64,000 bases of DNA from Protoeuglena noctilucae (Eukaryota), in assembly GCA_958009085.1 (NCBI GenBank), contig OY253671.1, forward strand, positions 1,488,001 through 1,552,000, given 5' to 3'. Both the position numbers and the translations under genes were made by a program. Shown here in pieces: positions 4,301-63,700 of the stretch. Position 1 is the stretch's first letter, and the number at the start of each line of letters is the position of its first letter. The notes beneath the pieces were generated by a model. That model had not been told where the DNA came from. It searched no databases and worked only from the letters and a program-made list of their open reading frames with translations.

Positions 4301-7300
4301 CTCGCACACCGCGCCGATAAGTGCGAAAAACTCTGGGTCGAACTGCGACGAGAAGTATGAGAGACATTGTGGTGAGAGTGATATGTTGCAGAGAAGGTGC
4401 AGCAGCATGGGATGTGATGTGAGCGGTGGCTGCGGTGGGCGACAGGAGCGATGTGAGCTGTGGTGGGGAGCAGGCTTAAAAGTGACCCCGCATACCCACA
4501 ACAACTCAGTGGATAAAACTCACCATGGTCACCCACGACATTCAGAATGGCCCCACTCACCCATCACAGCCAAAGGGACCACACCCGACCTCACCCACGA
4601 GAGCCTTGCCGCCGACACACAGAGGGACGACACGGACAGGCTGGTGATGCTGCCCCTCTGCCTCTGCAGCTCCTCGTATACCTGCGATGATGAGATTCTC
4701 ATACCGACTGTCTCATCTACGCAACAAACAACGAGCCCCTCTTCTCATAGGCCCCTCTACTCTCCTGGCACGCACTTGCGATGTATCGACCGCCCCATCG
4801 CACACGACCCCGCTTTAACGCATATAGTAGATACCATGATACTGAATACCAACGTATCTATCGCATCTTGTCTGACACGTGAGTTGCATCTGTGTCTCTC
4901 ACCAGCGCGAGGTCGCGTGGGGACACGGGCACCGCCAGATCCGCACAGGCCCAGACGACCATGCAGATGCCCTTGACGGGGAACCGGGTGATGGCCTTTG
5001 GGGAGAAGACCGCACGGGTGAGGCGGTTGACGCAGGGCACCCCGGGGTGGTACCCCAGGCGAGCGAAGGCCCACAGTGCTGTGCTGACGGTGGCCGGGTC
5101 GCTCATGGTAACAGAGTCACTCATTGTGGCGGCCGGGTCATTCCTTGTGATAGCGTCGCCTGTTGTGACAGGGCCACCCATTGTATGAGTGGCCGGGTCG
5201 CTCTCTGCAGAGGGCTCTCCCAGCAGCCGGTCCGCGCATGCCGTGAGGAAGGCGCGGCCCAGTTCCCCAGACGAGTAGCCCGCCAGGGCAAAGGCGTAGA
5301 GGAGCGTAGCCAAGGATTTGCCCTCGAACGCCCTGCGGGGGAGCAATGGTAGTTACTGAGGTGTGACTGGGATTCATTGCAATCAGTCACTGCCTTGAAG
5401 TGACCCACGGTCACCCGTGCACTCGACCTCACCTGAGCAAGCAACTCGAGTTGCCTGTGCCACATAGACACCCCGCTCTCTTACCTGAGCGCCTCGGGCT
5501 GCCTGTGCCACATAGACACCCCGCTCTCTCACCTGAGCGCCTCGGGCTGCATGTGCCACATAGACACCCCGCTCTCTCACCTGAGCGCCTCGGGCTGCCC
5601 GTGCCGCCTCGCGACGGCGTCCAGCATGGCGTCCAGACCCACCGACACACCCGGCAAGCGCGACAGCCGCGCCACTGCCCACACCGCCCTTGCCAGGTCC
5701 CGGGGGCTCATGCGGCCCTGCGACGCCTCCACCAGGGCCGCCAGGTGCCGGCAAGCCTCGGACACCAAAGGCGCGCTCGCGGGAATCAATCCCTGGACCT
5801 CTCCCCGCACGCTTGAGGGCGCCGGTGGACCACCGGCCACCTGCCCATCGCGCCCGCTCCCGCTACGCTCCCATCCCTCGTCCCATTCGCCAGCGATGAT
5901 GTCCACGTCGTCGTGTGGCTGCCCGCGTCCACCCACCGATGCCCCGTCCTCCAGCACCCTCGCCAGGGCATGTGCGAACCGCCCCACGCTATTGGGCGCT
6001 TGGGTCCGGCACACTTGCGGGGTGGCCTCCAATGCCACGGTCACGAGGGCAGCCGGCGGGGTGTGCTTGAGCGCCGCGCAGGCGATCGTCAGCTGAGGGC
6101 GGAGGATGGAGAGCGGCGTTGCCTGGGTCGTCGCAGCTAGCGCATGCGAGGCTGGTTGTGCAGTCACTCGGGTGCGGTGCGGTCAGCGCTCTCTGTGCCT
6201 CAAAGCATGACTTGTTAGGTAAGGTCCCATTCTGTGCCACCCCTGCCCTTTCTCAACTTGCCGCAGCCATTTCAACACAGCCCCTCGCCCCTCACCTCCG
6301 TCACAGCGCGCAGCCAGTCTGCGTGATCCTGAGCCTCGGCCCCCGCTGGCGGCCGCTCGTCCGCCACCCTCGCCGCGATAGCCAACGCCGATGCTCCGGG
6401 GTCGATGCCGTGCGTGGCGAGGGCCCCCACCAGAATGGCCGCCTGCTGTGGCTCCAGCTCTCCCGCCTGAGTCAGCTCTCGCACCCGGGCGCTCAAGTTG
6501 CTGAGCGTGGCCAGGCTGCGGACGTCCGTATTTCCCATGCCCACCAGGGCCGCACGGACGGCGCAGGGGCCGAGGGAGGGCGCGCCGTCAGCGATCGAGG
6601 CACACAGGCGCTCGGCACAGCTGCGGTCCAGGCAGCCGCAGGAGCGGAAGGGGTGGCCGCCCAAGACGGCGAGGGCGCGGACGGCGAGGTCCGCCGGGAT
6701 CGGATGGTGCACCAGGGCTTGCTGCGCCTCTAAGGCGAGGTGGCGGCCGGGGCCGCGCTGCAAAGTGGGGCCGCAGCATCGCAGCACGTCGACGAGTCTG
6801 ACAGGCGTCAGCTGTGGGCAGGAGTTACGTGTGCAATGAGAGGCAGGCCAGATGTCCGGCCAAAGCACGAAACCAAAGCACGAAGCATGCGGCATGACAT
6901 TCACTGGTTATAACACGAAAGCAGACGTCGATGGGCGCTCGCCTGGCACAGGGCCTGGAAGCACGCCTCACTGCGAGGGCTGGACGGCAGGAGCGCATCT
7001 TCCCAAGCGGAGATGCTGCGGGGGCACGCATAGGGGGTCACGTGTCATGGCATGTCATGGCCACGCCCGGTGCACCCGTCATGAGCGCTTGACGCAAACA
7101 CGCTTGAAAGCAGCATGGCGGGGCTGTATGTTGAGCACTCGCCTCGCGTGCGCGTGGTATCCCAGCTTTCGCATGGAATCGAGGGCGCGTATGTAGTGCA
7201 CCACGTTCTTGGGCTGCTCCAGCCTCCCATCTGGCAGACGGGCACGGGTGCGGTGGTAGAAAGCAAGTCAACACAGGGTGGCAGTAAGCTGGTGTCCGGC

Positions 7301-19020: not shown

Positions 19021-22000
19021 TCACGCGTCCGAGTCGTAAGCGGCCGTGCAAGCGCTGCCCCGGTCCCCCTCCCCCTCGCTCTCCGCCTTCACCGACCCCC
19101 GCCCCCGCTCCCTGCCCCGCTCCCTCTTCCGCCCCCCGCCCTCGCTTTTAGCGTTGTTACCCCGCCCTCCCCCGGACGGCCCCAGAGCCCGCACCTCTTG
19201 CTGCACCGACGGCGGCAGCGTGGCGACGGCCGGCAGCGTGCCCGTGGGCATCGGGGGCGGGTGTGGGTGGCCTTGTGCCTCTAGCGCCGCCAGCACGATG
19301 GTCTGCTCGTGCTCCAACACCTCTGCATGTCAAAACGAACAATGAGGGATATTGTATTAGTAATATCAGTAATAAGACATAGAAACACACCTACAGGCGC
19401 AGTTGACGAGCTGAGACGGACTGCCGATGCTGGGGTAGCAGATGGTACCATCCCACGCACCTCTCACGAGGGCTGGTTCATCATCTCAATGGGTCTATCA
19501 ATCGTGCAACATACCAATAGGTCTACTATAACCATGACTACCTCCCCCACCCTTCACGCACCTCTCACGAGCGCGAGCGCGTCGTAGCAGTGGTCGACCA
19601 TCGCGTCCACCGGCATCCCCTGCACCTCCGCCATCGCCACCCCGCGCTCCACCGCCGCCTCCAGAGCCCCCAGCGCCCGTACCGCCGCCTCCCCGTGTGC
19701 GCGCGAGGGCAGCTGGGCCACCAATGGCCGCGTGCCGCCCCGCAGGCACTCGCAGGCCTGGCGATGGAAGTCCTGCCACGCCCGCAGCAGGGGTTGCAGC
19801 TGGCTGGAGGGCGTGACCTGGCAGCACTGCCTGCGGGGAGGGGAGGGGGGGGGAGGGGCGAGAGATGAGGGGGTGGGGTGGGGTGGGGAGACATGGGTGG
19901 TGGATGACATGCAATGACGATGGCTGAACAGAGACACAGCAATGGTATCACGCTTGGTCTTCGCATCCCATCATATAACTGGTCACGCGACTCTCACTGG
20001 TCAGTTGTCATTGCGATGGTCATTGCCGTGTTTGTCGATGATTGATAGTCCCATTCACCACGCGTGACTCCTCACCGCAGTGCCCTCTCATGCAACTGCC
20101 ACACTCCCACCACTGCCACATGACACTCACCGCAGAGCCCTCTCCCAGGGCTGCGGCACCCCGGCTGCCGGTCCCTGGAACATGAGCATGGCGTGCTTGA
20201 GCTGCAGGATCAGAGCCGCCGCCTCCGCCACCGCCTCGCACCCCCGCACCGCCCTCCGCCACGCCGCCCGCCGCCCCTTCCACGTGGCCAGCACGCAGGG
20301 CCAGGGGACCTTCTCTTCCAAATCCAGCAACTCCGCACGCAACTGCGATTTGAATAGGGGATGTGAATGGAATCATAGAGAGGGACCTTCTCTTCCAGGT
20401 CCAGCAACTCCGCGCGCAGCTGCGATGAGGGATGTGAATAGGTGATTGTGAGGTGAGGCATTGACAGGGACCTTCTCTTCCCTCCCCCTCTTCTGCCTCT
20501 CAACACTGCACCCATACACCCATACACCCACACCACCCCACCTCTCACCTGCCCCAGCGGGTCCCTTCCCCTCTTCTGCCGCCTCCTCCGCGCCCCCTCC
20601 GTCGCCGCCCCTCCCTCCGACGACCCCTCCTCCATATCCTCTGACACCTCCTCCGAAACGTCAGAGACGTCCGACGCGTCAGAAACCTCCACGTCCGACG
20701 ACCCGGACGACGACCCCGCGTCGCTGCCGGGATCCGAACCGGTATCCGATTCCTCCGAATTCCTCTCCATATCCGCAACGGCGTCCGACCCGCGCTCCCC
20801 CGCACCCGCGCTCTCCCCCACCGCCTCGCCCGCCTTGCCCACCCCCCCACGCCCCCCTGCTCCCCCCACCCGCACCACCCCAGGCCCCGCCCTGCGATTG
20901 GCCCCAGCCTCCACCGTCGCTAACACAGGTGGCCGCCGCGACCCCCGCATTCCCCCATTCCCTGCCTCTGCCTCTGTTGCTGCCGCTGTCGCTGCCACCG
21001 CTGGCCCGCCATCCTCGCCCTCTCCCTCCCCACGCTCGGAGGGGGGCTGGGACGTCGACGCCGCCGGGGCCGCTGAGGGAAAATGGCAAAGAAAGTATGG
21101 ATTGTGTGGATTATATATGATAGTATAAGCATTTGTAATGCGATTGCTTCTCATGCAGTGCACTTGCACACACCCCCACACCCACACCTGGGCTGCCCTC
21201 GCCCCCACTCCGCGACCTCCCCCGCCCCCGCTTCCACCCCCCAGGGCTGCCCCCCTCCCCCACCTCCCCACCCTCCGCCTTTCGCTTTCCAGCCCCACCC
21301 CTGCCCCTGCCTCTGCCCCTCCCACGCCCCCCACCACCCCCACCGCCCCTCCCCTCCATCCCCGCAGCTGACCCTGTTGCCACCCCGCCACCTTCCCCGG
21401 ACTTGGCCTGCAGAGCGGCGCTGGCGGCGGCTGCGGGCGGTGGGATGGGGTGGCGATGAAAGGGGTTGACGGAGAGCGGCAGTGGCCGAGAATAGCGGGG
21501 GTGAACAAGGGGGGTGGCTGGGGTAGGGTGTTAGCATAGGTACAAACCGTAGCCACATCATCGCATTCTTCACGCACCCGAGGGTGGGACGGGGATGGGG
21601 ACGGGGACCGGGGGGGCAGGGGCGGTCGACGTGGTTGTGGCCGCGGCTGGCTTGGCCTGCATGGGATGGGGAGGAGAGGGGCTTTGGTGATGAGTCGTGA
21701 CTCTTCGCATGTCATTATGAAGTCATATTACTCGGATCAGACACTGCGAGCACCATCCAATCCCGGTGCCACCACTATGCCATCACAATGCGATGTTCAA
21801 TAGATGCCAGCCACCCTTTTCCCCACTCACCGCCTCTGCTTCCGCATCGCCTGCTTTGGCCGCGGCCGGCGGAGCGGTGGCGGTGGCGGTGGCTGGGGCG
21901 GGGGATGGAGAGGCTGAGGCAATGGGCGCACCCTGCAGCAGAGATGGGCAGAGATGGGGATGTTAAGATGCAGGACAGCGAAGGGCGACAGCAACTCAGT

Positions 22001-34117: not shown

Positions 34118-37100
34118 TCACTTAACCCCTCCGCGCACCGTGGGAGGCGGCAGTTGCCTCAGATCCTTCTTGTAAGCCTCTGTTGTGGGGAACACGAAGT
34201 TTATAAGTGCCTGGCACGACTTCCACCCCACGTGCAAGTCGTGGCCCCCCGCCGCCAGCGTCCCCGCCACCCGCTCCGTGTCGGCCAGCTCGTCCTCCGA
34301 CAGCTCCCTGAAGCGAGGCAGACGAGGGTGTTGTTGATCGCGAGAAAATAGGCAACCAGGCGATGGTATGTATGATCATAGCAATGTTGCAACGTATGAA
34401 GTGCTCGCTCCCTCCCTGCGCCAAATTAGCCCCTCCCCGTGCCTGCACCTCTGCTTTTATCACCAACCCACCCACCCCATCTCCCTCACCCATACTTGAC
34501 GAGCGGCAGCGCCTGGCTGGACCCCACCGCCACCGCCTCCCGCCGGTGCAGCCCCGCCAGCAGCGCCCCCATCTGCGCCTCCTCCCCCCCGCTCCCCTCC
34601 CCCTCCTCCGCGCCGCCCCGCCCCTCCCCCCGCATCTCCGCAAGCGCCTGCCGATCCCTGACTGAGAAATGCAGGCCCATCAGATGACGCACCGTCGCCG
34701 GCACGCGATCATCACACTGCAAGAACTCCTGCACCCACTGCGAGACCTGCTCATATGAAGCATCCCTGTAAACGTCCACGAGAGGGTTCAAGCCCAAGGC
34801 TGTCAAAGAGGCCAGGGTAGGGGCCGCCGAAGGGTCCACGTCCGTGCGAGGGCGCTTGGCCACGCGATCAGCCCCCGTCCCGGGACCGCTGCTCCAGAAA
34901 GGCTCCCGCCGCCCGCGGCCCATCAGCGCGGACGTCTCTTCTTCGTCCCGCTCCTCCTCCTCCTTCAGCAGTTTCTGGCAGAAATCGAAATCCATCTGCG
35001 GCACGTGGGGACGGGGGGAGGGCAGGGGTGGCTGAGTGGGTGTTGGGAGCACGCATGGGTGTCGGGGCAAGCTTGTAGCTGTCGGGAGCAAGTTTGGTCC
35101 CATCACAACAGTGAAAAGCACGTTATCTGTTTGCAGATGTCGACAGCACGTACCGCGTCTCACCGCGAACAGCACGTGCAATGTGTCATCTAACACCGCA
35201 AACAGCACGACCCTTGTGTCACTCCCCACTCCTTCCCCCCCTAACCGCGAACAGCACGTGTCTTGTACCACCCCCTACACATCCCCCCCCTCACCGCAAA
35301 CGGCACGTGCCGGGTGTAGTCGACGGGCCTTGCATCACCTGTCACCTGACATCACCACTCACTACCTCACTATCTCCTCCCTCACCGCAAACAGCACGTG
35401 CCGCGTGTAGTCAACTGGCATGGGCCCGCCCCCCCCCGCCTCCTCCACCAGGTGCCGGCTCTGCTGCTCGTCCCACCCCACGACCCGCACCGGCTGCCAC
35501 TTCGTGCGCGGGAGCTTCCCCGCGTTCCACAGCATCACCTCGCGGCCCACCAGGGCGGGGCCACTGGCTCGCGATCGGAACATGCCCGCCTGAGATGGGG
35601 GAGAGAGCGGTGTGGCATGGTGAGAGTAAGGCGATTGCTAGCAGTTTTGAATGTTGTGAAGCTTCCAAGGTAATACATGTCAGGCATGCGGTGGGTCGCT
35701 CGCCATGCAAAGCCACATTCAGCGCACGCTAAGTGCCCCCAGCTCTCCCCTACCTTGCCGCTCCCCTCACCAGGCTGGGCAGCCCCTCCATGAGCCCCGC
35801 ACTCAAACCCTCATCTCCTCTACCCTCACCAGGCTGACCACACCCCTCCCCTCACCTACACCCCTCATCTCCGCTCACCAGGCTAGGCAGCCCCTCCATG
35901 AGCCCCGCGTCATACCACTTGACCCGGTCGAGCGTCTTCTCATCGTCATAGGCGTGACGGACCTGCTCCTGGATCAGCCGGATGTCCTGCACCTCACCGT
36001 CATCGTACAAAACCTGGTGGCGCCACGTGAAGGGGTCGAAGTCTGCAGGGAGTGGTTGGGGTGATTGAATTGGGGGTGAAGATAGCGGGGAGTTATAAGT
36101 GAGGATGGGGAGTGGTTGGGGTGATGGAATGGGGTCAAGACTGCGGGGAGTGGTTGGGATATCATCGAATGGGGTCCAGGTCTGATAAAGGCATGTGTAC
36201 CACTCACCACCCTCTGCACCATCATGCAACACTCCCCACCCCCATCACCCCTCACCCGTGATGACCGCCATGTACCACTTGCGCTCGTGAGACCAGAACA
36301 CGCCCACGCGCTTGCCGATGGCGCGCGACCTCTCGAGCGCCACCATCGCCGAGTAGACGCGCTTGTGGGCGATCTGCGCCGTGCGCATGAACAGGCACGA
36401 CTGCTTCATCTGGGGGTTCACGCACATCTGGCATTTGCCGCACTTCTCGATCGGGAAGGTCGGGTGGAACTGCGTCCGCTGGCTCTTGCGCTCCTGCGAG
36501 GGAGGGGAGGGGAGGGTGAGTGCGATGGGTCTCTGTGCGTGTGCTGAATGAGTGTGATATCTTGCTGCATGTGTTGGCTGCAGCTGCATCGGCATATCAC
36601 AGCTCTAACTGCATGCGCAAGCTCTTACGGTGCAGCTTAGCTGAGCCCTGCCCAGGGTGACGCATGCATGCCGGCCAGCACACACGGCGTGCCCTTTGCG
36701 TGCCCTGCCGTCCTCTCGTCACCTTCGCCGTGTGGTCCTTGGGATCGAAGCGCAGCAGGTACGACTTCGTAATCTGCACCATGCCTGCGGAAAGAGACCG
36801 AAGAAGAGAAGGTCTGAGGCCTTCCCACCGACACAAACAAGCGTGCTTCGGCGGGCAAAGGCTCTGCGGCGAGCACTCGCCGTCCTCCTCCTTGTGCTTG
36901 ACGACCACGAGGTCAATCTCCTTGAAACCGCCGTTGTACTCGATCGTGTAGCAGTTGCGGGACCGCTCGTAGCCATTGACGCGACCCAGCTTCCACTGCT
37001 GGTCCTGCGGGCCGGCGCAGTCCGGGCGTCGCGGGACACGCTCGCCGCGACATTTGCAGCGCGAAACACCCGGTGGACCGCGCGGCGGGCGGCCGAGCGC

Positions 37101-39521: not shown

Positions 39522-41650
39522 ATGAAGAAGACCAAGGGCCAAGGGCCCCTGCACGGCAACCCCGACGAGCTCATCGTCAACATCCGCAACAGCAAGGCGA
39601 GCGCCGGCAGCGCGAAGGGGTAAGCAGCGCGCGCAGCCGCGTTCTCATGGCCGGCGGAGCGCCCCGCGCCGTCCCCCGGCCCCGCAGATGTACTCGGAGC
39701 TGTTGGATTTCAACGACCAGATCTGCCGCGCCGAGGCGATGTTCAAGGTGCGGCGCGCCGGCGTCCGCGCGGCAGTTGGGAATGTGCGCGCCGCGAACAT
39801 GCGCTCGCATCCGCGCGTCCGCGCCGCTCCCGCCCGCAGCGGATGCGCAGCACGACGGACGACTTCATCGTCACGTGCACGGAGATCCTGGCCGGCAAGA
39901 CGCCTCACGTGTACCTGGAGCACGACTCGGCCCCGAGCGGGGAGCGCAACCTGGGCGTGGGCATGGACGCCAAGGCGATGCGCCAGGCGCTGAGCGACTA
40001 CAAGGACCGCGTGCAGGAAAAGGTGCTCAAGCCGATCAACGAGTGGAAGCTCGGGTTCCGCACCGCCAACAACAGCGTGGACCTGCTCAAGCAGCGGTGC
40101 GACGCCGTACTCGACCGCAAGGCGAGTGGATGCGGGGCTATTGTGTAAGGTGCGTTTGGTATGTGTGGATGTGATGTGCACTGCTGATGCATCGGTGGGG
40201 AGGTGCCATGCTGGCAAGCGCTGTGCGTTTCATGTGTATATGCGTCTCATGTTCGCAGAAGAAGCTCGAGAAGGCGCAGAGTCGGACGCTGCCGAAGATC
40301 GAGAGCCTCAAGAAGAAGATCCGGGTGAGCCAGAGCAGAGGGGGCGGGCTGCTGGTGTTGCGTGGATGCGGGGTGCGGCAGGGGCGTGCATGTGCATGCG
40401 TACCCTGTCCTAGTGGGCGTGTGAGTAGTATTGCACTGCTGTGCGTCTGCCACTGGTTGATGTCGCTGGTTGGCCACTCACATGATGCCCTTCTCTTGAC
40501 ACCCCTGCAGTCTCGCAAGGACGCCCGCAGCATCGAGCGCGGCAACGAGGCGGTGGAGAGCCACGAGCAATACCTGTACGAGAAGGAGGCCAAGCTGAGG
40601 TGAGGAGATGTTGTGTGTGCATGTGAGAGATGATGTGGAGTGGCATATGGTTAATACCTGTACGAGAAGGCCAAGCTGAGGTGAGAGTGTGATGGTGTGG
40701 ATGATGCGTGCTGGCTTGTGTGAGAAGGGGGCTCAGGTGAGAGGGGAGGGTGTGGGTGAGCTATGTGGGGCTGTGCGTGCTTGAGAGAGGGTGTTGAGCT
40801 GTGGCGTCGTGCTGTGGCATTGACGCGCCAGATGCCGGCTGTGCATGCCCATCCTTGCACCCATTGTTCCCTCGCCATTCACAGCTCTGCCCGCATGGCC
40901 TTTAACTCGATGGAGATGGAGGTGTTTGAGCAGCTCAAGAGCCTGGCCGAGGACTGCACGGGGATCAAGGCGCTGGTGGCTATGATGATGGACGAGAACG
41001 CCACGCTGGTGAGTTGTGTGTGTGAGGGGGATGTGCGGATGATAGAAGGGGTGCGAGATGAGAATGATGAGTGTGCGAGATGCGCTGGCGGTGGGGTGCG
41101 ATTTGGCTGCAGCGCTGCTGCAGTTGGGACATACCCAGAGCTCGCGACATACCCATAGCTTAGCTAGTACCCAGCGACATCCTTAGTAGCTATCCACTAG
41201 TAGCTTCCCTGTCATTCCCCACGTCTACCCTCACCTCTGCTGCACGTGTGACGCCGCCTGTTCTCTTCTCTTTTCCCTCTCAGATGCGGTCGGCCATCGA
41301 TGCCATGGGGGACCTCGAGGTGATTGCAGCCATAATAAGAATTAGCATTGATGCATTGCTTAGTTGTGATGGTATGCTTAGCTGTGATGCCGTGGGGGAT
41401 TTCGAGGTGAGATGGGCATTTGGGATAAGTGACATGCTCAGCAGTGGTGCGAAGGTCATGCTTCGCAGTGCAATGCAGTGCACTGCTGGGCGTCCTGGTG
41501 CATGTGAGCCGCCCGCTTGCTCCTGCGTCGAACACTGCGGCTCTGCATCCCTCACAAATCACATCTGACCAAATTCCCTCCACCTTCCTCCCCAGCTCGA
41601 GCCCCTCATCGCTGAGGCAAAGCGCAAGGGACCCGTGGAGATGGGGGCGG
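39522..41650 (+). CDS. N-terminal exons of a BAR-like coiled-coil protein; true start may lie upstream
   Basis: About 8 phase-consistent exons encoding long amphipathic helices (ALSDYKDRVQEKVLKPINEW; KKLEKAQ; EMEVFEQLKSLAEDC); BAR assignment is inference. Confidence 0.6.
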
Positions 41651-41803
41651 GTGAGGGGGGTGGTTGCATAATATTTAGTAGTTTTGGACATGCATTGCAT
41701 GCAGTTAAGCAATATGCATTGTTTGCCACACTGGAGCCCCAGCTGAAGCCCATGTTTCCCTCAATTTTTTCATCTGTTTTTGATCACCCTTATTTCACCT
41801 CAG

Positions 41804-44800
41804 AAACCCCCACCCCCCCCATGGAGCCCAAGCTGACGCCCGTGTCTCCCGTCAGCGAGGAGGTGGCTGCGATCGGTGGAATTGAGCAGGGCATTCCCCG
41901 CGCTGCCAGGGAGAGGGCGATGGGGGAGGTGGTGGCGATGGAGAAGCAAGAGGGGAGGTCCATTGGTGGGGGTAGCCAGGGTGAGATGTAGAAATATATA
42001 ATGTAGATATAGTAAAGTATATGGGTGGATATATATGAGTAGATATAAGCATGAGTGGGTAGTGTGATGGGGGAGGTGGTGGCGATGGATGGGTGAGTGG
42101 GGTAGAGAGAAGAGGGTTGGTTGGTATCACGTTTCCCTTCAAATTTCATCATAACAATAATCTCACTGTCCATCTCCCACCCCAGCAATGGAGGTGTGCT
42201 CCCCCGTGGGGCTGGAGGACCCCGACCGCACCCGCGACATCGCATCCACCTCCTACCTGAACGAGGCGAGAGCTGGGATGTATTGGTAATATAGATGATA
42301 TAGTGTAGTAGTAATGATGGTAATGGTTGTAATGGTTGTAATTGTAGTGGTAGTGGCACTGCACCCGCGACGTCGCATCCCCATATCAACGCCACTGCCC
42401 AGACACGTCAAATGCCAATTGACATCAATAATCTCCGCATAATTACAAAATACTAACCATACCACGCATTCCCCGTCATAATTTCAGGACGTCCCCCACC
42501 CCGACTCCCCCACTGCCAAGCACGCCCACACCCACGCCGCTGTGCTGGAGCCCGTGGTGAGGAATTGAGTGGATGCGATGGGTGCTATTAATATCATTAT
42601 TATTACTTAAAATAGTACAATAATACGACACAGAAGGTGAGTAAAAAAATTGATCATAGCGAACGGCATAGTAAATAAGAGACGCTTTTGATGGTGAGTC
42701 GATTACCACTGGCGGATGGCACGGCAACCAGCTAACAAGTGAGCACTGCGTTTCCTGACCCTTCCCGCAACCATTCGGGGCAAGCGCGTTTGGCTTGCCC
42801 CACCGCCACCGCACCACCATTGCACACCCACCCCACACCACCCCTGCACTTTCACCCACCCCACCATTCCGCACACCCACCCCACCCCTGCACCGCCACC
42901 CCACCCCACCCCTGCACCCCACCCCACCCCACCTCTCCCCATCTTCCATTCACCGCTGCCCCACCCCCCAAGGTCGCCCCCCCACTGCCGCTTGGCTGCA
43001 GGCCGCGGTGCGAGTGGAGGAGGCGGACTGAGGGGGAGTGGAGGGGCAAGCGAGCAATGAGAGAGATGGAGGGAGATGAGGGGGGTAGAATCCCTCTCTT
43101 GAGGGTGGTGGTGGTGGTGCTAGGGGTGGCATTGGTGGCAATGGTGGTGGTGGTGGGGGTGCAGTGGTGGTGGTGGCTGCGGTGCAGTGGTGGTGTGTGG
43201 TGCATAGCGAGAGCGATGCCAGTGCTTACTCGCGCTCGGTTGGCCGCTCCGGTTCTTTCTTTTGAGTTTCGAGACATGCTGTGTCGTTCACCTTTGAAGT
43301 CCCCTGTTTCACGCTCAAAGCACAAGTCTTGGCACATCACACATCCATGCCTGCCACCTTCTGTATTGCATATGCGGTGCTGCACCATCTATGCACCAGC
43401 ATCACCCACCAGCATCATTACCCATGCACCCCATATCGCAGCCCCACCATCACCCGTCTCTGCACTCACCAACCATGCACCCACCCCACCCCACCCGGTC
43501 CCAGGTTCGATCCCCACCTCCCCGCCCATTCCCTTAATCTCGCATTCCCCCCTCTTTCCCCCCAGGGCCGCCGCCACCGCCCCGCAAAACAGCAGGGCGG
43601 TGGTTCGGACGCCCACCCCACCTCTGCTGTTTATTCCAGCAAGCAAGGGCCTGCCCTGGTTTTAAACAAGCAGGGGCCGAGCATGCTGGCCCCTCTGGGC
43701 CCCTTCCAAGCTGCGTCAGCAGAGCGTGGGGTGAAAGGGTCAGTCAAGGCGCCAGTGAAGGGGCCAGTGAAGGGACCATATCAAGCTCAGTCAACTACAG
43801 AGCGTGTGATGAAGGGACCTATGACGAGCCCCTTTCATGCGCAATCGACGGAGCGTGCGATGAGGGGCGGCAGGGGTGGCATGGGGGGCGGGCTGCAGAT
43901 GGGAGCGGGGGTGGCGGAGGCGAGTGCGGATGGGGCGATGACGGCGATGTGTGTTGCTTATGTGTGCTGGTGTTTGCTGTAATGACAGTTACGAGTTATT
44001 GATCATGGCATGGCCATGCTGCCGATACGCTTGTTCCTTCTCTTATCGCAGCGGGAGGGTGGCTACGAGAGCGACGAGGAGGACCTGAGGCTGATACGGT
44101 GAGCGGGCGTTATTCGATGGATACAGGATAAGTAATACTTTATAATCTATCTATAAATGATGCTAACTAACCATGCATCTCAATAATGTTATCGTTATAA
44201 TCACTTTTATATTCACACATATGTATTTAATTACACATATAATTATAGTTGTGTTGATAATTTATAACTTTATTCATATATATATTAACAATATATTGAT
44301 CATCGTTTCCCTACCCCTTTCTGCAGGGTGCGAGAGGTGCACCCAGGCAGCCTGCGTGTGGGGAGGAGGGGGCCGGGCAGCGATGGGAATCGAAATGGGG
44401 ACGGCAAAAAGGGGAGAAAGGGGAAGAAGGGAAAGAGGGGCAAGGCGGCGCTGGCGAAGGTGAGACGGGATTTGGTTTAGTTGAGTATTTCCAATATCCA
44501 ATATTATTAGTAATGCATTATTATTACCAAGGCTGGTCAGCATGATGCTGTGCCGCCCTCGCCCCAGCACCCACCCCCACGCACCTTTCTTGTATCAAAA
44601 TGCCATTACTCATTCTATTGCTGGGAATTTTATTCCCGATGTTATTCGTATCCCCAATATTATTCGCAGTCGCTGCCCGGCGGCGCGGTGCGCAAGCAGG
44701 CCTCGGCTTTGCGGTGGTGGGCGCTGCTGCGGGGGCGGGGGAGGGGTGGGGGAGAGGAAGGGGGTCAGCAGAGCGTGGGGTCGGAGGAGGCAGAGAGGGG

Positions 44801-53800: not shown

Positions 53801-56800
53801 TGGTGAGGGTGCGGGTGGGGTTGTGAGTGGTGCAGAGATGGGTGCGGATGCAAGCGCTGGTGTTGAGCCGCTTTCTGACATTGCGGGCTTCCCCAGAGAT
53901 CGGGAATTAGCAGAGTATGAGGGCGGGGAGGGGATGAGCGCAGCGCCAGTGGGGATGCCAGAGACGGGCGTGTCAGAACCGGGTGCTGCTGTGGTGAGGG
54001 AGTGGCCGATTGGGGAAGGGGAAATGTCAGAAACATCGCTGGGTGCGGAGTTCGGCCTCGATTCCGCGGGACTGGCGTTTGGGGTGCCAGTGCCAGTGCC
54101 AGTGGGGGGGCAGGGCGAGGGGGAGTGGGAGATGGTAAGCGTGGGGGAGGTGGGGGGTGAGGGTGAGGGTGGTGTGGAGGGTGGCACTGCGAGTGCGGGT
54201 GCGGGTGGTGTGGTGGGTGTGGGTCATATGAGGGGTGTTGAGATTGGCCCCAGTCACGGTGGCGAGGGGCTGGGGCTGGAGTTTGCGGGGGATGAGAGCG
54301 GGCACAGCTGGCGGCTGCATGGGGATGAGAGAGAGGGGCGTGGCGATGGCGATGAGGGGAAGGGGGTGGGAGAGGGTGCAGAGGGGGCGCAGAGTGGGGG
54401 TGGCATTGCGGGAGCGGGTGCGGGAGTGGTGGAGTTCGCTGCAATGGGCGCTCCATCCGCACCCTCACACCCACACCCCACCCTTTCCCCCTCTGCTATT
54501 CGCCGCTCCCCTCGCCGCGCCGACCGCGGCTGGGGATCGGAAGGGCCGTTTACTGGCACTTTCACAGGCCCGTTTACTGACACGTCCACTGGCGCGTTTA
54601 CTGGCACCTGGGGCGGCCCCTTCCCTGGCACTGCGATGCTGACGGGGGGGAGGGAGTGGACGGAGATGAGTGGGGGAGAGGAGGTGAGGTGTTTGAATGT
54701 GGGGGTGTGGGTGTTTGAATGAGTGGGGGGGAGGAGGTGAGGTGTTTGAATGTGGGGGTGTGACTAGACCTGGGCATGGCGACATATATAGCGTATCATA
54801 TATTTTCATCACCAATCCAGTAACAGCCCCGTCCCTCCTCACCTCTCACTCCCAATCCCCACGCTCCATCCCCCACCCTCACCCAACTGCCTTAGCTATA
54901 TACATCAATTTATGATCAATACTCATCCTTATCCACTCGTCTCCCCCCCCCCCAGGACCTCCCTGTTTTCTCCCCGACTGCCATCCAAGCCACCCCATCC
55001 CCCACCGCCACCGCCGCCCTCCCCACGCAACCCACCCCACGCTCCGCCGGCCCATTCCAACCACAGCCCCACCCACTCCCCATCTCCCAATCCCAATCCC
55101 AACCACTCTCCCGATTGCACGTCCCATCCCACCCCACCAGCACTCCCCCAGCCCAGCCGCCCGCCCCTGACTCAGCCGCACCCGCGTCTGACAGCGGTGC
55201 CAGTGAGCCGGTGTCAGCAGAGGCACCCCCCACTGCGACGGGGCTGTCGGTTTCGGTACAGCCGCCGCTGCCGCTGCCACTGACGCCCCTACCCCCTGTG
55301 ATGGGTGGGGAGGTGGGGGGCGGTGAGGGTGGCGGTGAGGGTGGCAGTGGGGGTGCGGGTGCGGGTGCGGGTGGTAGTGCGGGTGCAGAGATGGGTCCGG
55401 GGGGCAGCGAGGGTGCAGTGTTGGGACTGCCCGTGCGTGCGCAAATGGGGGAGGAGGTGGGAGGTGGGCCTGTGGGCATTGTACTATCACCGCTGCAGAG
55501 CTTTGGGGCTAGGGAGGGGGAGAGTGAGAGCGAGAGTGGGAGTGAGGGAGCGGGGGTGGGGGAGAGCGGCGGGGGGGAGGGGAGAGAGGGAGAGGGAGTG
55601 GGTGAGGGTGGTAGTGGTGGTGGTGTGACAAGAGAGGCGTTTGGTGGGATGGTGGCGCCGTGGCGCGGGGTTGGGGTGGGTGGGGGTGAGGGTGTGAGCG
55701 GTGGTGGTGCGAGTAGGGAGGGTGGTGTGGGTGAGGGTGGTGATAAGGGCACTAGTGGTGGTGAGGGCGGTGGTGGTGGTGGTGGTAGTAGTGGTGTGAC
55801 GAGAGAGGCGTTTGGTGGTGTGGTGGCGCCGTGGCGAGGGGGGGGCTGGGTGTCATCATTGGGTGGGGCAGGGGCGGTGGGGGAGAGGGCAGCGAGGGTG
55901 TCATTGGATAGGGGGATTGGTGGGGGTGAGGGTGCAGAGAGGGGTGCGGGTGCGGGTGCGGGTGCGGGTGGTGGTGTGGGTGTGGGTGGTGGTGAGGGTG
56001 AGGATGGGGGTGAAGCAAATAAGGCTGCAAGCGAGGGAGTGGATAAGGATAAGGATAAGGTTTCGGGCGCGGGACTGGATAAGGCGGCTCGCACGGCTGC
56101 TGAGGTGGCGGATGCGGGTGTGAGTGCGGGGTTGGATGTGGGTGGGAGGAGTGGGGGGGTGAGTGGGGTTGAGGAGGGGACAGTGGGGGTGAGACAGGGA
56201 GAGGGAGAGGGAGAGATTGAGGGAGAGGTGGAGGGTACTGTTACAGCTGAGGGGTTGGGTGTGAGGGGAGGGGAGATGGGGGGTGCGGATGCGGGTGCGG
56301 GTGCGGGTGTGGGAGAGGGAGAGAGGGAGAGGGAGGGTGCGATGGAGGGAGAGGGGGGAGGGGATGGGTGCGGGTATGGGTGCAATGGGGGGTGGCAGTG
56401 AGGGGGAGGGTGTGACGGTGGCGGTGGGGGAGGTGGGGTCGCCTGTCGAGGCGTTGGTGGCGATGGCAGAGGAGGGGGCAGGTGAGGGGTGGGGGGGAGA
56501 TTCGAATATTTAAACATATTACGGCAATGATGTTTGAATGTGGGGGAATATGGGGATGTAGCATTGGTGGCGATGGCAGAGGAGGGGCAGGTGAGGGGGG
56601 GGGGGGGGGGGGTACTTTGATATTGAAATATGATGAAGAATGGTATTTGAATCTTACTAGGATGTGGGGGAATGGGGATGTGGCGTTGGCTGGCGAGTGT
56701 GTGCGATCATGCATGGTGCATGATGCATGCACGTTTCACACATTGCCAACAGTGCCACTCAATCCTGAACATGATTGCTAATCACCACCCCCCACCCCTC

Positions 56801-57400
56801 TCCCTTACTCAACCCCCACACCCCTCCCCTCCCCCGCAGTCCCCACCCCGCCCCTCGCCCCCGGCAGCGCCGCGATGCACAGCGCCGGGAGCGCGGGGGG
56901 CGATTCAAATTTCGAATTCGAATTCGAATTTGAATTTGTCGACGCGGCCAGCGAGCCGCCCCCCAGCGAAGCTGCAGCATTGGCGGAGGCTGTGGCGGCA
57001 GAGGTGGCGGNNNNNNNNNNNNNNNNNNNNNNNNNNNNNNNNNNNNNNNNNNNNNNNNNNNNNNNNNNNNNNNNNNNNNNNNNNNNNNNNNNNNNNNNNN
57101 NNNNNNNNNNNNNNNNNNNNNNNNNNNNNNNNNNNNNNNNNNNNNNNNNNNNNNNNNNNNNNNNNNNNNNNNNNNNNNNNNNNNNNNNNNNNNNNNNNNN
57201 NNNNNNNNNNGGCGGCGCGTGCCAGAAACGCGCCCCTGGCCCCCCCCATGTGCTGCAACCCGCCGCCCGCGCAACCGCGGCTGCCCCGCTCCGTTCCCCA
57301 TCGCTCGCCACGCCCTCAGCTGCACTCATGCCCCATACCCCATACCCCCCCCTCCCCTCAGCTGCATTAATGCCCCATCCTGTTTTGCAGCCACACTAAC
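41804..57400 (+). CDS. Putative very long low-complexity (G/E/A/V-rich and P/T/A-rich) continuation of the BAR-like gene; disrupted by a TAG at 52941, an apparent frameshift near 56400 and an N gap
   Basis: Chain of spliceable segments and long + strand ORFs (47545-50535, 50541-52943, 52944-54722, 55115-56401) flanked by donor and acceptor sites. Confidence 0.4.
51400..52270 (+). repeat. Coding Pro/Thr/Ala repeat (PPPxAVAVSTPATxxPPP..TPTPTQ units), mucin/extensin-like
   Basis: About 7 degenerate units visible in the DNA and in ORF 50541-52943. Confidence 0.75.
57011..57210. other. Assembly gap (200 N)
   Basis: Run of n. Confidence 1.
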
Positions 57401-57730
57401 CCATCCTTTGTTTGCTGCCAACAATACCACTAGCTAGCGCCACCACACCCACACCCACACCCACCCACCCACGCCAGCCGCCCCACCGCTGTTGTTACAC
57501 AGCTGCAGGGGTTGAGCTGCATTTCCGTTCCCGCATTGCATGGCCGCGTATCTTCCTTTCCGCAAAGCAAAGCAGAGCAAAGCAGCAAGGCATTGCAGTT
57601 TGAAGTTCAAACACACCCGTTACTGTTAATGCCAATGCCAACTCAACTGCCGTTCTATGCCAACCTTCGGTGCCAGGCCGACCCAAAAGCAAAACCCCAC
57701 GCCCCCAGAGGTCGCGGGTTCGAATCACGT

Positions 57731-60700
57731 TCACGCGGACAGCGCATAAGCGGGCAGCTCCCGGGCGTGCGCCCCCAGCATCGCCAGCACCGCCTCCACC
57801 GCCCGCACCCTCCCCGCGCCCCCCAGCGCCCTCGACGACTTGCTATTCGAATTCGAATTTGCGTCCTTTTTTGAATTTGAATTCCCGTCCATTTTGGCGT
57901 GAGCGGCGTCGAGGGTTGCGGCGGCCGAGGTGAGGAGGGAGGCGCGGAGATGGGCGAAGCTGTCGTGGTAGAGGGCAGACGCCCAGTCCTGGGGTTATGG
58001 GAGGGGTGTGATAGAGGGGATTGGTAACTGCATGATGCGGCAAATGACTATGTTTCTTATTCCAATCAATATGTTCCTATTCCCACCCAGCCACTCGCCT
58101 GCGTCAGGTAGAATACTATCGTGGCTACCACTCCCACCACAACACACCCAGTCTGCTCTGATCCCCTGTAACTATTATTCTTAATACTCATTCTACATAT
58201 CACATCTATAAAATCTAAAAATAATCCCACCCCACTCGCCTGCGTCAGGTATTCGTATAAATCGTCCACCTCCCCCTTGGCGTACATTTCAAACAAATCC
58301 CCCAGATACGCCACGTGCAAGCCCACCAGCCGGTCGATGCGATTGGACAGATCGCTCTTTTTTCCAATGTAACACGCGGCCACGATCGTGTGACCCCGGT
58401 CCAAGAGCAGGCGCACGGAGGGACTGCCGCGCTGCTTGGCGCTGTGGCCGCTCTTAAACAGCATCTGGGGGGGAAGGGGATGGGATGGAGTTATATAGTT
58501 ATATGCGGATTAAGATAATTATTTAAAACAATTACAGACAGTTGTGCAAAGTGCCATACCCACCCCATGCTGTGCCACCAACCGCATCTACCACATCCAC
58601 CATCAATCTAATATCAATAATACCATACCATCACCGACAACCATCCTATTTTTGCATATTTGAACCTCCAACCCCCACCGCCCTCACCTGGTCCGGCGCG
58701 GGCGTCCACGCCCCCACCCCTCACTCACACACCCACCCACCCATGCACATCCACTAACACATCTATAACCGATAATCCAATTACAACAACCAACCCCTTT
58801 ATTTGAATTTCCAACCCCCACCCCAGTTTCAAACTCTCACCTGGTCCGCCGCGGGCGTCCACGCCCCCACGCCCTCCCCCCCCTCCACCGCTGCTTTTGT
58901 GGCTTCCGCATTCCCCGCGAATACAAAAACGTCGCCGTCCGGACCGTCCACGCAGAATCGCTTCGCGCGCAGCATGAGCGGGGCGGAGGGGGGGGCGGGG
59001 GCGGAGGGGGGGGCGTCGGGGGAAAGGCGGTGGGTGAGGGAGCTGCGGGGGTGGGGGAGAGAGATGGGGTGAGAGTGAGTGAGCGAGTGAATGAATGGGA
59101 TGGTTACAGAGTGTGTGCGTGCTTCCCTGTGCAAGTGTGTATGCAATCATGTGCATTTGCACAACACCCACGCTGCAACACCCACACCCCACACCCCCCC
59201 CACCCCCACACCCCAAATGCTTTCTCACCTGAAGTGCGCCCGTATGGCCATCCCCAGGCACTCCCCCACCTCCACCGAGTGCATGTGCCTCATACGCAAG
59301 TCCTGGCCATATCGCGACGAAAAGCGCGCCACCGGCCCGGCCGCCAACACACACGGGTCATTGGTCCTAAACGCCCCATCCACCACAATGCCCTTATCCA
59401 ACACCAAAGCGGCATCGCGCGCGAGCGCAGCGATGGATGGGTCGATGGCGGGATTGCCGCAAAGCACGATTAGACGGGCGTCGATGCGATCGGCGCTTGC
59501 CGTGTCGGGGGTGGGGTGCGGGTCGGTGGGGGTGGGGAGGGGGGCGGGGGCGAGGAGGGCGGAGATGGATGCGTCGGTGAAGTCTGGGAGTGAGAGAGGG
59601 GGTTGGGGGTGAGATGGGAGTGAATGGTTGTTGTTGTAGTGAGAGTGGGTGAGATAGGTGTGGGTAGCGGGAGAGGCTAGCATCTAAGACGGCATCTTTT
59701 CTACCCCACACACTCTCACACCCACCCCCCCACTCACCCGCCACCCCCGTCACCCTCCACTCGCATCCCTCACTCACTCACTCACTCACTACCCCTCTCA
59801 CACCAACACACCCCCCCACCCAACCCCCCCCCTCACCCGCCACCCCCGTCACCCTCCACTCGCACCCCTCCGGCGCCACCCTCCGCTGCAGCCTCCCGAA
59901 CAGCCCCGCCGATTCCCCCTGCGCCCGATGCGCCAGAAACGCAGCCCCCGCGTCAGAAACGTAATGCGCGATGTAGTCGGCCGGCACCCCGCACGCCTGC
60001 AGCATCTCTACGGCTGTCAGAGATTCCGGGCCGTGGCCAATAACGGCGACGGGGAGCGCGGGATTCGATCCGATCGCCAGCTCGCGCCCCACTTCGACGT
60101 CCAGCGACGCGCAGAGCTCTTCGTAGGTGACGATCGGCGGTCGCTCCCCTTCCGGCAATCCCAGCTCGTCCAGTCCCGCGTCCTGCATGCCTGACGCGAT
60201 TGCCAGAATGTCGTAGGGAATCTGCGATCCGTCCTCCAGGCTGACGGTGCGGGAGGGGCGGTCCAGGCCAGTGACGGTGCCGGTCACGACCTGGGGGGGA
60301 GGGGAATTGGGATATGGGTGTGAGAGGGTTGGAGAAAAGGGTTTGAATGGTTGGATGATAATAGAGGTTAGTGTAATGGGACGATTGTATCGTGGGGATC
60401 ATGGGCGACGCACCTTGCAGGCACGTGCGGTCGACGCGTCACCCATCCCAATACTCACACCATTCAAACATACACAACCTATTCAAATTAACTCAAACAC
60501 CACCCATGTCACTCCTCTTTCTCACCTGCACCGCGCACTCCAGTCCCATGCGGTCGGTGGCGGCCCCAAACAGCGGCGACGACCGGGGCAGCCCCGCAGA
60601 GGACACCAGTATGAGAGACGGGAGCTTGATGTTCGAATTAACCAGCAGATTCTCGATCGCGCATAACGCGGTGGTGGACGCTCCGAGGAAGAGCAGCCGG

Positions 60701-63700
60701 TGGTGGGCGGTGGGGGGGAGGTGGTGGGACAGGCGGGAGGGGAAGAGGTACAGGCTGGGGGGGGTAAGTGGATGGGGGTTATGAATGAGAAGTGTGGTTG
60801 GAATGGGGGTGAGTGTGGCAGTGAGGGTGGCAGTGGGGGTGGTGATAAGGGTGGCGGATCATTGCAACTCACCGTCACACTCAACCACATACCGCATACA
60901 CCCCATCCCCTATCCCCTCCCATCCCCCCTCACCTGAACGGCGGCAGAGCCACGCTGGGCAGCTCCCGCACCGCCAACCACTCCCAACCCCACTCTTACT
61001 CAACCACTACCTCACACTACCCCCTCTCCCCAAACTCATCATCTCACCTGAACGGCGGCAGCCCCACCGTGGGCGGCTCCCGCACCGTCGGCGCCTGAAG
61101 GAACTCCCCCACGATGTCCTGAGGCGGCTCCCCCTTCGGCAATGCATAATACAAGCATGTCTTGCTCATCAATCGCATGCACTCTCGTAGAAAGTGCCTG
61201 GCGCGGCATGTGAAGACGGGGGATAGAACGACCATGTCGACCTCGGCGTGGGCGTTGGCGCGGTGGTGCTGAGATTGGGGGGGGGGAAGAGGGGGGGAGT
61301 TAGTGAGTGGAGGAGTGGAATGGGTGTTGTGGGGGGAGTGAGGGAGTGCGGCAGGTCTGGGGGTGAGTGGGTGGGCGTTGGCGCGGTGGTGCTGGGGGGG
61401 AGATGCGGGAATGGGTGAATGAGTGTTGGGCTGGACGTTTTGTGTGTATATAAAGTGAACCATGTGACGAGAGCGCAGTGCCCCACCCCCACCCCATCAC
61501 CAATTACTATTATCATTATTATGATTACTATAATTATTGATAATCCCTCACCGTCGGCTCCAGTATGGCGTCCAGTCGGTACAGCGCCGTCAGCGCCGCC
61601 AAATCCACCTCCCCAATGAGCGTGGCCATCCCCACCACCTCCCCCCCACACTCAGCCACGTACGCCCCGCTCGCGCCACGCTTGTCGCGCAGAGCGTCTG
61701 CGAACATGGCTATTATATTATATTATATTATATTATATTATATTATATTATATTATATTATATTATATTATATTATATTATATATTTTACAGCCCTGAAG
61801 AACGCCACTCACTTCTACCCCACCCACCAGTCAAAACCTTCTGTACTATCATCATTTTCAATTTCACATCCCACCCCGCATCTCACCCCGGAACGAAGAC
61901 ATGACGTCGTTCTGCGTGGGCAGCCCCTCTGTCAAGTCCATGACCTGCTCCTCGTCCGCGTCAGTGGCGTTTCTGACGATGAATCCCGGTGTCAGACCGT
62001 CCCGGTGAAACGCCAGAAGGACGTCGGGGAAGAAGACGCCGGGGAGGGAGGGGACGCTGTGGGGTGGGGGAGTGATGGTGAGATAAGCAACAAGAGCGAT
62101 GAACCAGTGGTGATGATGGCATTGATACTGATAGTGAAAAGTGTTACTTTTTCTCGACCATTCACACCCCACACCCACCCCCATACTCACCGCTGGAACC
62201 CCTCCAGCGCCCCCGGCTGCACTGAGTCATGCGGCAGCGTCAGAACGGCGTAGAGCCTGTCAGCGAACGCCGCGAATAGTCCCTTGATCAGGTCCCATCC
62301 CGCATAGTCCCACCCCGCGCGCACGCACAGCATAGTCACGGCAAAGGCGCTGGGGGGGTGGTCGCCCGTCCCCACAATCTCCTCCATCCCGCGCCGCACC
62401 GCGATCGCCTCTTCCTCCGCACTCATCTCCCACTCGTTATCATCACCGTCATTGTCACCGTCACCACCCTCCCTGTCACCATTACCACCCTCGCCGCCCT
62501 CGCCATCACCGCCCTGACTAGGCGACAACCCCAGGGCGTCCTTTGACCCTTCCGCAATCGCAGACAGCTCCGGAGCCGGCTCATCCTCATCCCCATCCCC
62601 CTCCTCCACCCCACCCTCATTCTCACCCCCACCGCCATTCCCACCCCCACCACCACCACCGCCCCCCCTCCCCCGCCGCTCCACCCCCTCCCTCGCCTCC
62701 CTAACTAGCGCATCATAGTCATCCGGCTGCATGAGCCAGTCGAAGGTATCTAGGTCGAAGTGCCGGTATAAGAGACGAAGGTCGACGTCCGCGCTTGCGG
62801 CTGCCATGGCCACCACGCCGTGGCCCTCCGCCTCGACCAGAATGACCTGGTTGGACTGCGGGGGAGGGGAGATGAGGGGGAATTTGAATTTGGATTTGAA
62901 TTTGGATGGTCTCTTAGGTGTGAATGAGTGACCGGGTTGGACTGCGTGGGTGGCCATAATGCCCATGCGCCTCCACCATCTGCAACCCACACACCCACAC
63001 CCACCCCACATCCACACCCAACACATAACACACACACCAACAGCAACACCCACACATCCCCACTCGCCTCATCCTGCCCCTGCACCATCTGCGCCAGCGC
63101 GAACTCCGCGTCCCCCTCCCCCTCCCCCCCCACGTACGGCGGCAGCTGCGCAAGAGTGGGGCACGCCACGCGCCCGTCCGCCACGATAGGCACCAACTCA
63201 TCAAAGTCCTGGGGCCGCGCGCGCCGGGCGGTGAGGCGGGGCATGACCGACGATCGGCGCGACACCACCAGGCCCACGCCCAGGTCGGCAGAACGGTCGA
63301 CTGCGGGGGGTTGGGGGGTGGGTAGGAGATGGATGGTGGTGTTGGGGGTAATTAAGGTGATGGTGGTGGTGGTGGTGGTGGTGGTAAGGTCAGACGAGCG
63401 GTCGATTGCGGGGGGTTGGGGGGTGGGGGATGGTGGTATGGTGTGGTGGTGGTGGCTAGTATGGTGATGGTGGTGGTAATTAGTATAGTTGTATACTAAG
63501 GTTAGAATGCAACGACAACGACCGCCACTGCTACCCTGTCCAAACAACCCTACTCATCCGCCAGGCGCGCACTCGCTTGCATACCCTGTTGCCGCCCAGT
63601 CAGTCACTTCGCAACTACTCACTTGTGGTGGCCAGGCCCTCCCATCCCTGGGGCACGTACAGCCCTGCCTGGGCGCGGGCGGGCGTGGCGGGGGCGCAGA

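Follow-up and report, generated by a model that had tools for sequence, protein, structure and literature searches.

Short tandem duplications across 5' splice sites lengthen introns in a 64-kb window of the Protoeuglena noctilucae genome

In a stretch of 64,000 nt from the genome of Protoeuglena noctilucae (assembly GCA_958009085.1, contig OY253671.1, positions 1,488,001 to 1,552,000), sequence from exon ends, often together with the adjoining splice site, recurs within the neighboring intron. The question raised by these intronic copies, termed echoes here, is which process produces them and why they gather at 5' splice sites (donors) rather than at 3' splice sites (acceptors). A reading made from the sequence alone (the sequence-only reading) had proposed a short-range duplication process acting at exon ends and splice junctions. 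The entire stretch is referred to as the window, and all coordinates are given within it. Its GC content is approximately 65%, and it includes a scaffold gap of 200 Ns at 57011-57210. All statistics were obtained from this single window, where junctions were mostly taken from an ab initio gene model.

Echoes of exon ends at donor sites

Local alignment recovered a similarity in all 19 pairs tested, over 15 to 70 columns and at offsets of 60 to 162 nt. Four pairs were exact (11844/11914, 22/22; 20305/20467, 15/15; 41919/42066, 24/24; 61248/61371, 24/24), and the others included mismatches or small gaps. An offset control was carried out with ungapped matches scoring at least 15, excluding a repeat-rich block at 43-56.4 kb and short-period matches. 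Offsets of 25-400 contained 43 clean matches, versus 0, 2, 0, 0, and 0 in five far-offset bands of the same width. Under the same filters, exact repeats of at least 15 nt within 400 nt were found 27 times in direct and never in inverted orientation. Hence, the proposed presence of copies at exon ends and junctions was borne out.

The region 57300-63500 was matched in sequencing runs of one organism (organism A), in marine metagenomes, and in metatranscriptomes. A marine-metagenome DNA contig from a separate study (X5 record 9; 57485-59532) and an organism A contig (X3 record 2; 57485-59757) each span both copies of the pairs 58091/58232 and 58683/58836 with no differences, and another metagenome contig (X5 record 12; 60826-61342) covers both copies of 60929/61043. 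Wherever contigs from the metagenomes or organism A spanned both copies, the copy number agreed with the window, as judged from contigs rather than raw reads. Because independent contigs span both copies, the echo pairs are not assembly stutter, as the sequence-only reading had argued from their divergence.

The distribution of echoes around junctions was analyzed with queries of 45 nt of exon and 8 nt of intron, each compared with its adjacent intron and, as a null, with all other introns. A hit was defined by a score of at least 15 that exceeded every null score, again with the repeat-rich block excluded. Echoes were found at 14 of 76 donors (about 18%), at two of 76 acceptors (Fisher p=0.0026 for 14 versus 2), and in 12 of 253 intron tiles of 53 nt. 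Each echo matched only its own exon, given the null from other introns. At a score of at least 13 the acceptors rose to 4/76 (Fisher p=0.02 versus the 14 donors), where one of the four was an artifact of the echo 56562-56590 being called an exon. Among the 12 tile hits, seven were intron parts of donor units and three came from acceptor-side events, leaving at most two independent events; the remaining two lie at 41.7-42.1 kb, where a probable exon was dropped from the gene model. Donor events at 56481 and, within the repeat block, at 46228 stand outside these counts. The comparison of introns with their flanking exons against controls, suggested earlier as a check, thus supported echoes on the donor side within the window, while the expectation of echoes on both sides of introns held for few acceptors.

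The gene finder was a small Viterbi model trained on the window itself. Six exon blocks on the minus strand were aligned from a metatranscriptome contig (X8 record 17): 57637-57987, 58239-58464, 58841-59042, 59229-59583, 59837-60288, and 60524-60755. The gene model matched the RNA exon ends within 0-2 nt, except for the acceptor side of the exon 61048-61219. Allowing for a placement ambiguity of 1-2 nt, the RNA-verified junctions included four GT donors, one GC donor (CAG|GCGAGT at 58239), and AG at every acceptor. In this RNA-verified subset, an echo was found at three of five donors and at none of five acceptors. The model predicted GC at 28 of 145 donors on both strands. In Emiliania huxleyi, approximately 60% of donors are GC (PMC4028052), compared with the four of five RNA-verified donors here that are GT.

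Geometry contributes to the junction bias: within introns of about 180 nt there is little room for a unit of about 100 nt that avoids both junctions. In the geometry model, which takes in some long and possibly mis-annotated introns, the median length of the 76 introns after unit removal was 178.5 nt, near the unit size of 48-153 nt. Across 76 introns and 14 unit sizes, the allowed unit positions were 70370 for donors, 70370 for acceptors, 125202 for intron-only events, and 2177 for units crossing both junctions. Intron-only events were given a detection factor of 0.5, as the intron part of the unit was itself recovered for about half of the 14 donor events. The per-tile contrast (14/76 versus 2-5/253) was rejected as a measure of a more than 10-fold hotspot, since a unit length close to the intron length inflates it; the corrected contrast has p=0.004. 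The donor excess over the intron interior shrinks much when geometry is considered, yet it persists. Neither geometry nor detection affects the asymmetry between donors and acceptors.

Structure of the duplicated units and effects on introns

Each donor unit is a head-to-tail tandem duplication of 48-153 bp that runs from the last approximately 12-55 nt of an exon, across the 5' splice site, into the beginning of the intron. Gapped alignments of unit against unit for the 153-, 114-, 108-, 99-, and 91-nt units extended from about 30-50 nt inside the exon, past the donor, and on through the intron part, so that the similarity covers the whole unit rather than a short patch. Local tandem duplication is hence the process behind the echoes, and the short-range duplication proposed by the sequence-only reading was confirmed in the form of direct, head-to-tail units. 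Templated-insertion repair with inverted copies was considered as the main process and found unsupported, as no inverted copies were present; three or four short patches remain unexplained.

Identity varied along the unit. When 15 events were pooled, identity was 45% at positions -60 to -41 from the donor, which is the level of unrelated sequence under this scheme, and it rose to 66% at -40 to -21, 78% at -20 to -4 (200/255), and 87% in the donor core at -3 to +6 (118/135). The intron bins had 67-73%. The 48-bp array at 5432-5605 is a little-decayed example of unit duplication. The earlier description of the process as active fits only in part, since in most copies the exon-derived part has diverged by approximately 5-20%.

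Introns with a donor echo were longer than those without (median of 276 nt, n=13, versus 172 nt, n=63; p=0.025), and the difference disappeared when the unit was subtracted (181 nt, p=0.85). The duplications therefore lengthen existing introns by about one unit, as had been anticipated. In the 14 donor events, with units of 48-153 nt and introns of 129-376 nt, the echo sits within an intron longer than the unit, which indicates that an existing intron grew.

The copied donors appeared intact. GT or GC was kept in all 13 echo donors of events that copied the donor, and their scores of 9.2-12.2 were similar to or above those of the authentic sites (e.g., 12.2 versus 11.6), where the median for all predicted donors was 8.6. 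Exceptions were one copy in the 48-bp array (6.9) and the echo of the 11877 event, which carries no donor. The RNA contigs joined exons only at the authentic upstream donors 58239, 58840, and 59836, and no use of an echo donor was seen in the contigs across the three RNA-verified echo introns, which represent three of the 14 donor events, although contigs drop rare isoforms. The sequence-only reading of echoes as decoy or alternative sites thus holds for decoys, which score like authentic donors, and is not seen in splicing at the level of contigs. Read-through to the echo donor would meet stop codons in 11 of 14 events. Units were multiples of three in eight of 14 events (p=0.058), and with these stop codons a selection for in-frame units was unsupported.

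Acceptor-side events numbered about four. Two echoes no longer have their AG, the one at 63300 (CAA) and the middle copy at 36.1 kb (CTA), and three keep it (62855, the distal copy at 36.1 kb, and 20.4 kb). As counted from the alignments, AG was lost in two of five echo acceptors versus none of 13 echo donors (Fisher p=0.065).

Explanations for the donor bias

The explanation favored here, with a probability of roughly 0.6, is an ordinary local tandem duplication that is kept where the authentic upstream donor still wins. A head-to-tail duplication of 48-153 bp would take in the exon end, the 5' splice site, and the intron start, and the transcript would then carry two equally good donors in a row. 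If the spliceosome keeps to the upstream authentic donor, the mRNA is unchanged and the intron is one unit longer. The downstream copy would remain as a silent pseudo-donor that decays neutrally, where its exon-derived part would stay recognizable the longest because the exon partner is constrained. The gradient of identity from core to exon part to intron part would then reflect neutral decay of the intronic copy against an authentic sequence that is constrained fully in the core, partly in the exon, and not in the intron. A duplicated donor would be harmless, and hence retained, if the first site wins. A duplicated acceptor would place a competing site before the real one, so that the unit enters the mRNA and the duplication is removed or survives once disabled. 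The donor bias would accordingly stem from retention, through a selective filter combined with a rule of donor choice. A generic duplication process filtered by selection, which the sequence-only reading had named as the outcome that would overturn it, may be the cause of the junction bias.

A precedent for this rule exists in intron 7 (IVS7) of human F7, where a 37-bp minisatellite has a first unit that spans the boundary of exon 7 and intron 7 (Borensztajn et al., 2006; PMC1557585). In that minisatellite, downstream pseudo-sites of identical sequence are able to function yet stay silent, since 5'-to-3' scanning selects the donor lying furthest upstream. Judged by sequence, the 48-bp array at 5432-5605 is built in the same way, with a boundary-spanning first unit followed by further donors, and in the RNA-verified pairs at 58-60 kb the contigs show no use of the downstream copy. 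Head-to-tail units with exon end, donor, and intron start were found here as in F7, together with pseudo-donors that appear competent. In contrast to F7, described as a single mammalian locus, the window has units at about 18% of tested donors in ordinary genes, mostly as two-copy, diverged units of 48-153 nt.

Several points weigh against the retention of ordinary duplications as the full account. The exon part made up no more than about half of the unit in 14 of 14 donor events, which a uniform breakpoint model does not predict, and donors formed 14/16 of the donor and intron-only events when 0.53 was expected (p=0.004). At 35159-35419, a core of about 20 nt from the exon end and donor occurs five times with shrinking spacers, and it resembles a recurrence or preservation of the core. 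Three or four pairs (11844/11914, 41919/42066, 61248/61371, and perhaps 42228/42361) are short copies of 20-24 nt with unrelated flanks rather than whole units; the exact patches of 22-24 nt, 70-147 nt apart, may have arisen as short templated patches or as tracts of conversion. The donor-choice rule has its precedent in human F7 and not in this organism. Finally, fully RNA-verified introns number only five, the junction 11876|12018 has the support of a database protein (P0001), and the remaining junctions are model predictions.

The donor excess over intron-only events, the limited exon part, and the five-fold core fit the retention account imperfectly, and for this reason a donor-proximal mutational hotspot stays as a rival, although an unlikely one. 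Here the polarity would be mutational: breaks or template switching, owing to R-loops or G-quadruplexes (G4) formed during transcription in the G-rich first ~100 nt of the intron or to a polymerase stalled at the 5' splice site, would yield tandem duplications that mostly include the donor and a short piece of exon. In 55 predicted introns of 120-600 nt, the sense-strand GC skew was +0.30 in the 5' half (G-rich) and -0.25 in the 3' half (C-rich), with a change of sign in 36 of the 55. This is consistent with a hotspot, as are units composed mostly of intron with just ~12-55 nt of exon, the excess of donor over intron-only events beyond the geometric expectation, and the recurrent copies at 35159-35419 and 5432-5605. 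However, the R-loops, G4 structures, and breakpoints are conjectural here, the sample is one window, and about four acceptor-side events exist. Low-complexity intron-only duplications in G-rich tracts were also filtered out, so the rate of intron-only events may be underestimated. A broader form of this idea, in which duplication is coupled to transcription or splicing, is aimed at the 5' ends of introns (R-loop- or G4-prone starts, or polymerase stalled at U1-bound donors), and copies exon end and donor genome-wide, is considered improbable as well. As a separate observation, the two halves of such introns could pair with each other, or a G-rich start could favor R-loops.

It is also quite doubtful that the echo donors are functional and maintained, whether they serve as extra U1-binding sites that aid transcription or splicing or act as alternative 5' splice sites from which unproductive isoforms are made under regulation. 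The donors are intact in 13/13 cases with scores as high as authentic ones, the donor core is the best-conserved bin (87%), and a conserved core recurs at 35159-35419. The gradient from core to exon to intron is nevertheless expected from neutral decay with only the authentic copy constrained, and the core differs little from the neighboring exon bin (118/135 versus 200/255). In addition, no echo use was seen in the RNA contigs, read-through meets stops in 11/14 events, and the donor is weakened in two of the four additional copies at 35.2 kb.

Less probable still is that the echoes are scars of intron birth, through a tandem duplication of exonic AGGT or through intron sliding. Rogers in 1989 and Hellsten and colleagues in 2011 are said to have linked tandem genomic duplication to intron gain. 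Daphnia-type gain at the repair of double-strand breaks leaves a short direct repeat at both ends of the new intron; in contrast, the echo here lies 48-153 nt from the donor with more intron beyond it. Duplication of an exonic AGGT proto-splice site is an accepted route of gain (PMC3443670; Drosophila cases in PMC2891723), and it shares with the present units a short, local, intragenic tandem duplication with duplicated splice signals. As these sources describe it, however, an exonic segment is duplicated, the new intron equals the unit, and its splice sites come from two AGGT copies. The AGGT model does not fit the present units, each of which straddles a donor that already existed and lies in an intron exceeding it in length, with a possible and only predicted exception at 20343-20386. 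There, the duplicated exon start at 20305-20481 contains AAG|GT, from which the gene finder alone derives a 33-nt exon and a 44-nt intron. All 14 donor events instead have the echo internal to an intron longer than the unit and not at its 3' end, and the unit includes G-rich intron sequence besides exon; the intron gain or sliding suggested by the sequence-only reading was thus not borne out.

That the echoes are artifacts, produced by stutter in the assembly or by chance similarity within GC-rich sequence of low complexity, is scarcely credible: the window is repeat-rich (374 rows from Tandem Repeats Finder, TRF) and short-read contigs break at some repeats (e.g., 59757-59835), but contigs from the separate metagenome study and organism A carry both copies without differences, the copies have diverged, and the far-offset (0-2) and inverted (0) controls contrast with 43 and 27 matches.

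Catalogue of loci, relation to known systems, and meaning

The loci are listed in Table 1.

Table 1. Echo loci in the window, with junctions from the gene model unless RNA or protein support is given (S, junction-test score).
Feature	Coordinates	Strand	Details
48-bp tandem array, 3.4 copies, 94% matches	5432..5605 (TRF 5445-5605)	-	each unit with exon end, donor, and ~30 nt of intron
donors of the 48-bp array	5432..5605	-	predicted authentic donor 5580/5581; echoes near 5532, 5484, 5432; scores 11.6/11.6/6.9/12.2; junction from gene model
exact 22-nt exon-end copy, donor not copied	11844-11865 to 11914-11935	+	11 nt before donor 11876|11877; junction via P0001
donor-spanning pair, unit 101 nt	19454..19571	-	predicted donor 19561/19562; S 17.5 versus null maximum 10; echo in intron downstream
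donor-spanning pair, unit 55 nt	20071..20144	-	predicted donor 20130/20131; S 16.5 versus null maximum 10.5
acceptor-side triple	20305..20481	-	exon start 20349-20305 again at 20426-20382 (unit 77) and partly at 20481-20459
donor recurrence	35159..35419	-	exon end and donor (~35384), then four copies of ~20-nt core at 91, 140, 189, and 222 nt downstream in intron
donor-spanning pair, unit 108 nt	35761..35908	-	predicted donor 35878/35879; 40 columns, 2 mismatches; S 33
acceptor-side copies, units 60 and 98 nt	36039..36158	-	just upstream of predicted acceptor 36042/36043; distal copy CAG, middle copy CTA
donor-spanning pair, unit 84/81 nt (3-nt gap in exon-derived part)	40569..40703	+	predicted donor 40599/40600; S 27
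donor-spanning pair, unit 87 nt	41299..41410	+	predicted donor 41319/41320; S 17.5
exact 24-nt copy, 147 nt apart	41919..42102	+	first copy in low-scoring predicted exon 41804-41980 (uncertain); donor-like GGTGAG after second
23-nt copy, 2 mismatches, 133 nt apart	42225..42380	+	first copy in low-confidence predicted exon 42186-42265; second in intron, no donor copy
donor-spanning pair, unit 109-110 nt	56451..56606	+	47 columns, 2 mismatches, 1 gap; echo miscalled as 29-nt exon 56562-56590
donor-spanning pair, unit 141 nt	58078..58251	-	RNA-verified GC donor CAG|GCGAGT at 58239/58240; echo donor identical
two complete 153-nt units, aligned end to end	58595..58900	-	RNA-verified donor 58840/58841; echo donor near 58687
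donor-spanning pair, unit 99 nt	59719..59870	-	RNA-verified donor 59836/59837; echo near 59737; 54 columns, 2 mismatches, 1 gap
donor-spanning pair, unit 114 nt	60929..61087	-	RNA contig (X9 record 24) starts at 61048; echo donor near 60933
exact 24-nt copy, 123 nt apart	61248..61394	-	both copies in intron above exon 61048-61219; intron-only event
acceptor-side pair, unit 86 nt	62840..62953	-	echo acceptor CAG intact; S 16.5
acceptor-side pair, unit 105 nt	63282..63453	-	echo acceptor CAA, not CAG; S 14.5

Most echoes proved to involve the donor side alone, and three of the pairs had been described differently by the sequence-only reading. The pair 61248/61371, put forward as an exon and its echo, lies wholly within an intron, and in 11844/11914 and 42228/42361 exon sequence was indeed copied but the donor was not. 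In the acceptor-side triple at 20305-20481, the middle copy has an intact CAG, and the gene model alone predicts there a mini-exon of 33 nt (20387-20419) with an intron of 44 nt (20343-20386) after it. The echoes are an annotation hazard, because their mimicry of exon ends misled the gene finder into the mini-exons 20387-20419 (33 nt) and 56562-56590 (29 nt). The former could instead be a real duplicated exon. Downstream of the echo at 56561-56606, at a distance of about 420 nt, lies the scaffold gap at 57011-57210, and the intron that holds this echo cannot be delimited.

Pfam matches to single exons pointed to unrelated genes, including an RMKL-like methyltransferase (8.8-9.8 kb), a fatty-acid desaturase (11.3-12.3 kb), an FAD-binding monooxygenase (14.6-15.4 kb), a NACHT/WD40 protein (28-31 kb), and CFAP61 (58-63 kb). 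The best named relatives of the desaturase were green algae, with 66-70% identity, and the database protein P0001 (384 aa) was 100% identical to the desaturase query exon and spans the junction 11876|12018. Protein searches with the exons 39840-40121 and 5583-6092 found no match, and a search of the ESM Atlas returned generic FAD-binding clusters only. A scan of metagenome contigs for orthologous introns identified one distant locus (L001, 38% identity) and no orthologous introns.

Other repeats were observed in the window. The region 43000-56400, excluded from the main counts, contains dense G-rich arrays with a 12-nt period (GGGTGC and GGTGGC types) on the plus strand, and at 51603-52091 an 81-nt, C-rich repeat resembling proline codons occurs in five copies. 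An AT-rich 5-nt microsatellite (TATTA type) is located at 61711-61782, in an intron of the GC-rich CFAP61-like gene. Within 57211-64000, the contigs from X3 and X5 reached a very high depth, and odd joints were numerous at 58800-59250, 60616-61070, and 62430-63110; the G-rich or C-rich repeats at these joints are common to many other places in the genome.

Gao and Lynch in 2009 reportedly described internal gene duplications that include exon-intron boundaries, with the duplicated splice sites reused. Compared with that description, the units here are much shorter, and a strong donor-side polarity like the one seen here is not known to have been reported there. Introners, the dispersed, multi-copy, transposon-derived introns of algae (PMC9860276), likewise change the intron content of algal genomes. 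In contrast to introners as characterized there, each copy here derives from its own neighboring exon end, and no dispersed family was found within the 64 kb (0-2 far-offset matches), in agreement with the earlier suggestion that no recognizable transposon is involved. A literature search in a limited library found no report that such boundary duplications are frequent and biased toward donors throughout the genes of an alga. Events of this type are known; what is new is how frequent and how polar they are here.

If approximately one donor in five carries an echo genome-wide, local tandem duplication would be a main route of intron growth in this lineage, without transposons. Such a genome would also offer hundreds of natural experiments on the choice of 5' splice sites, in which two identical donors are present and only the upstream one is used, and its donor-over-acceptor asymmetry would allow mutation bias to be separated from selection in the evolution of introns. 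Should a mechanism targeted to donors instead prove true, it would drive the growth of introns independently of transposons and keep supplying competent spare donors, together with mini-exons and alternative 5' splice sites.

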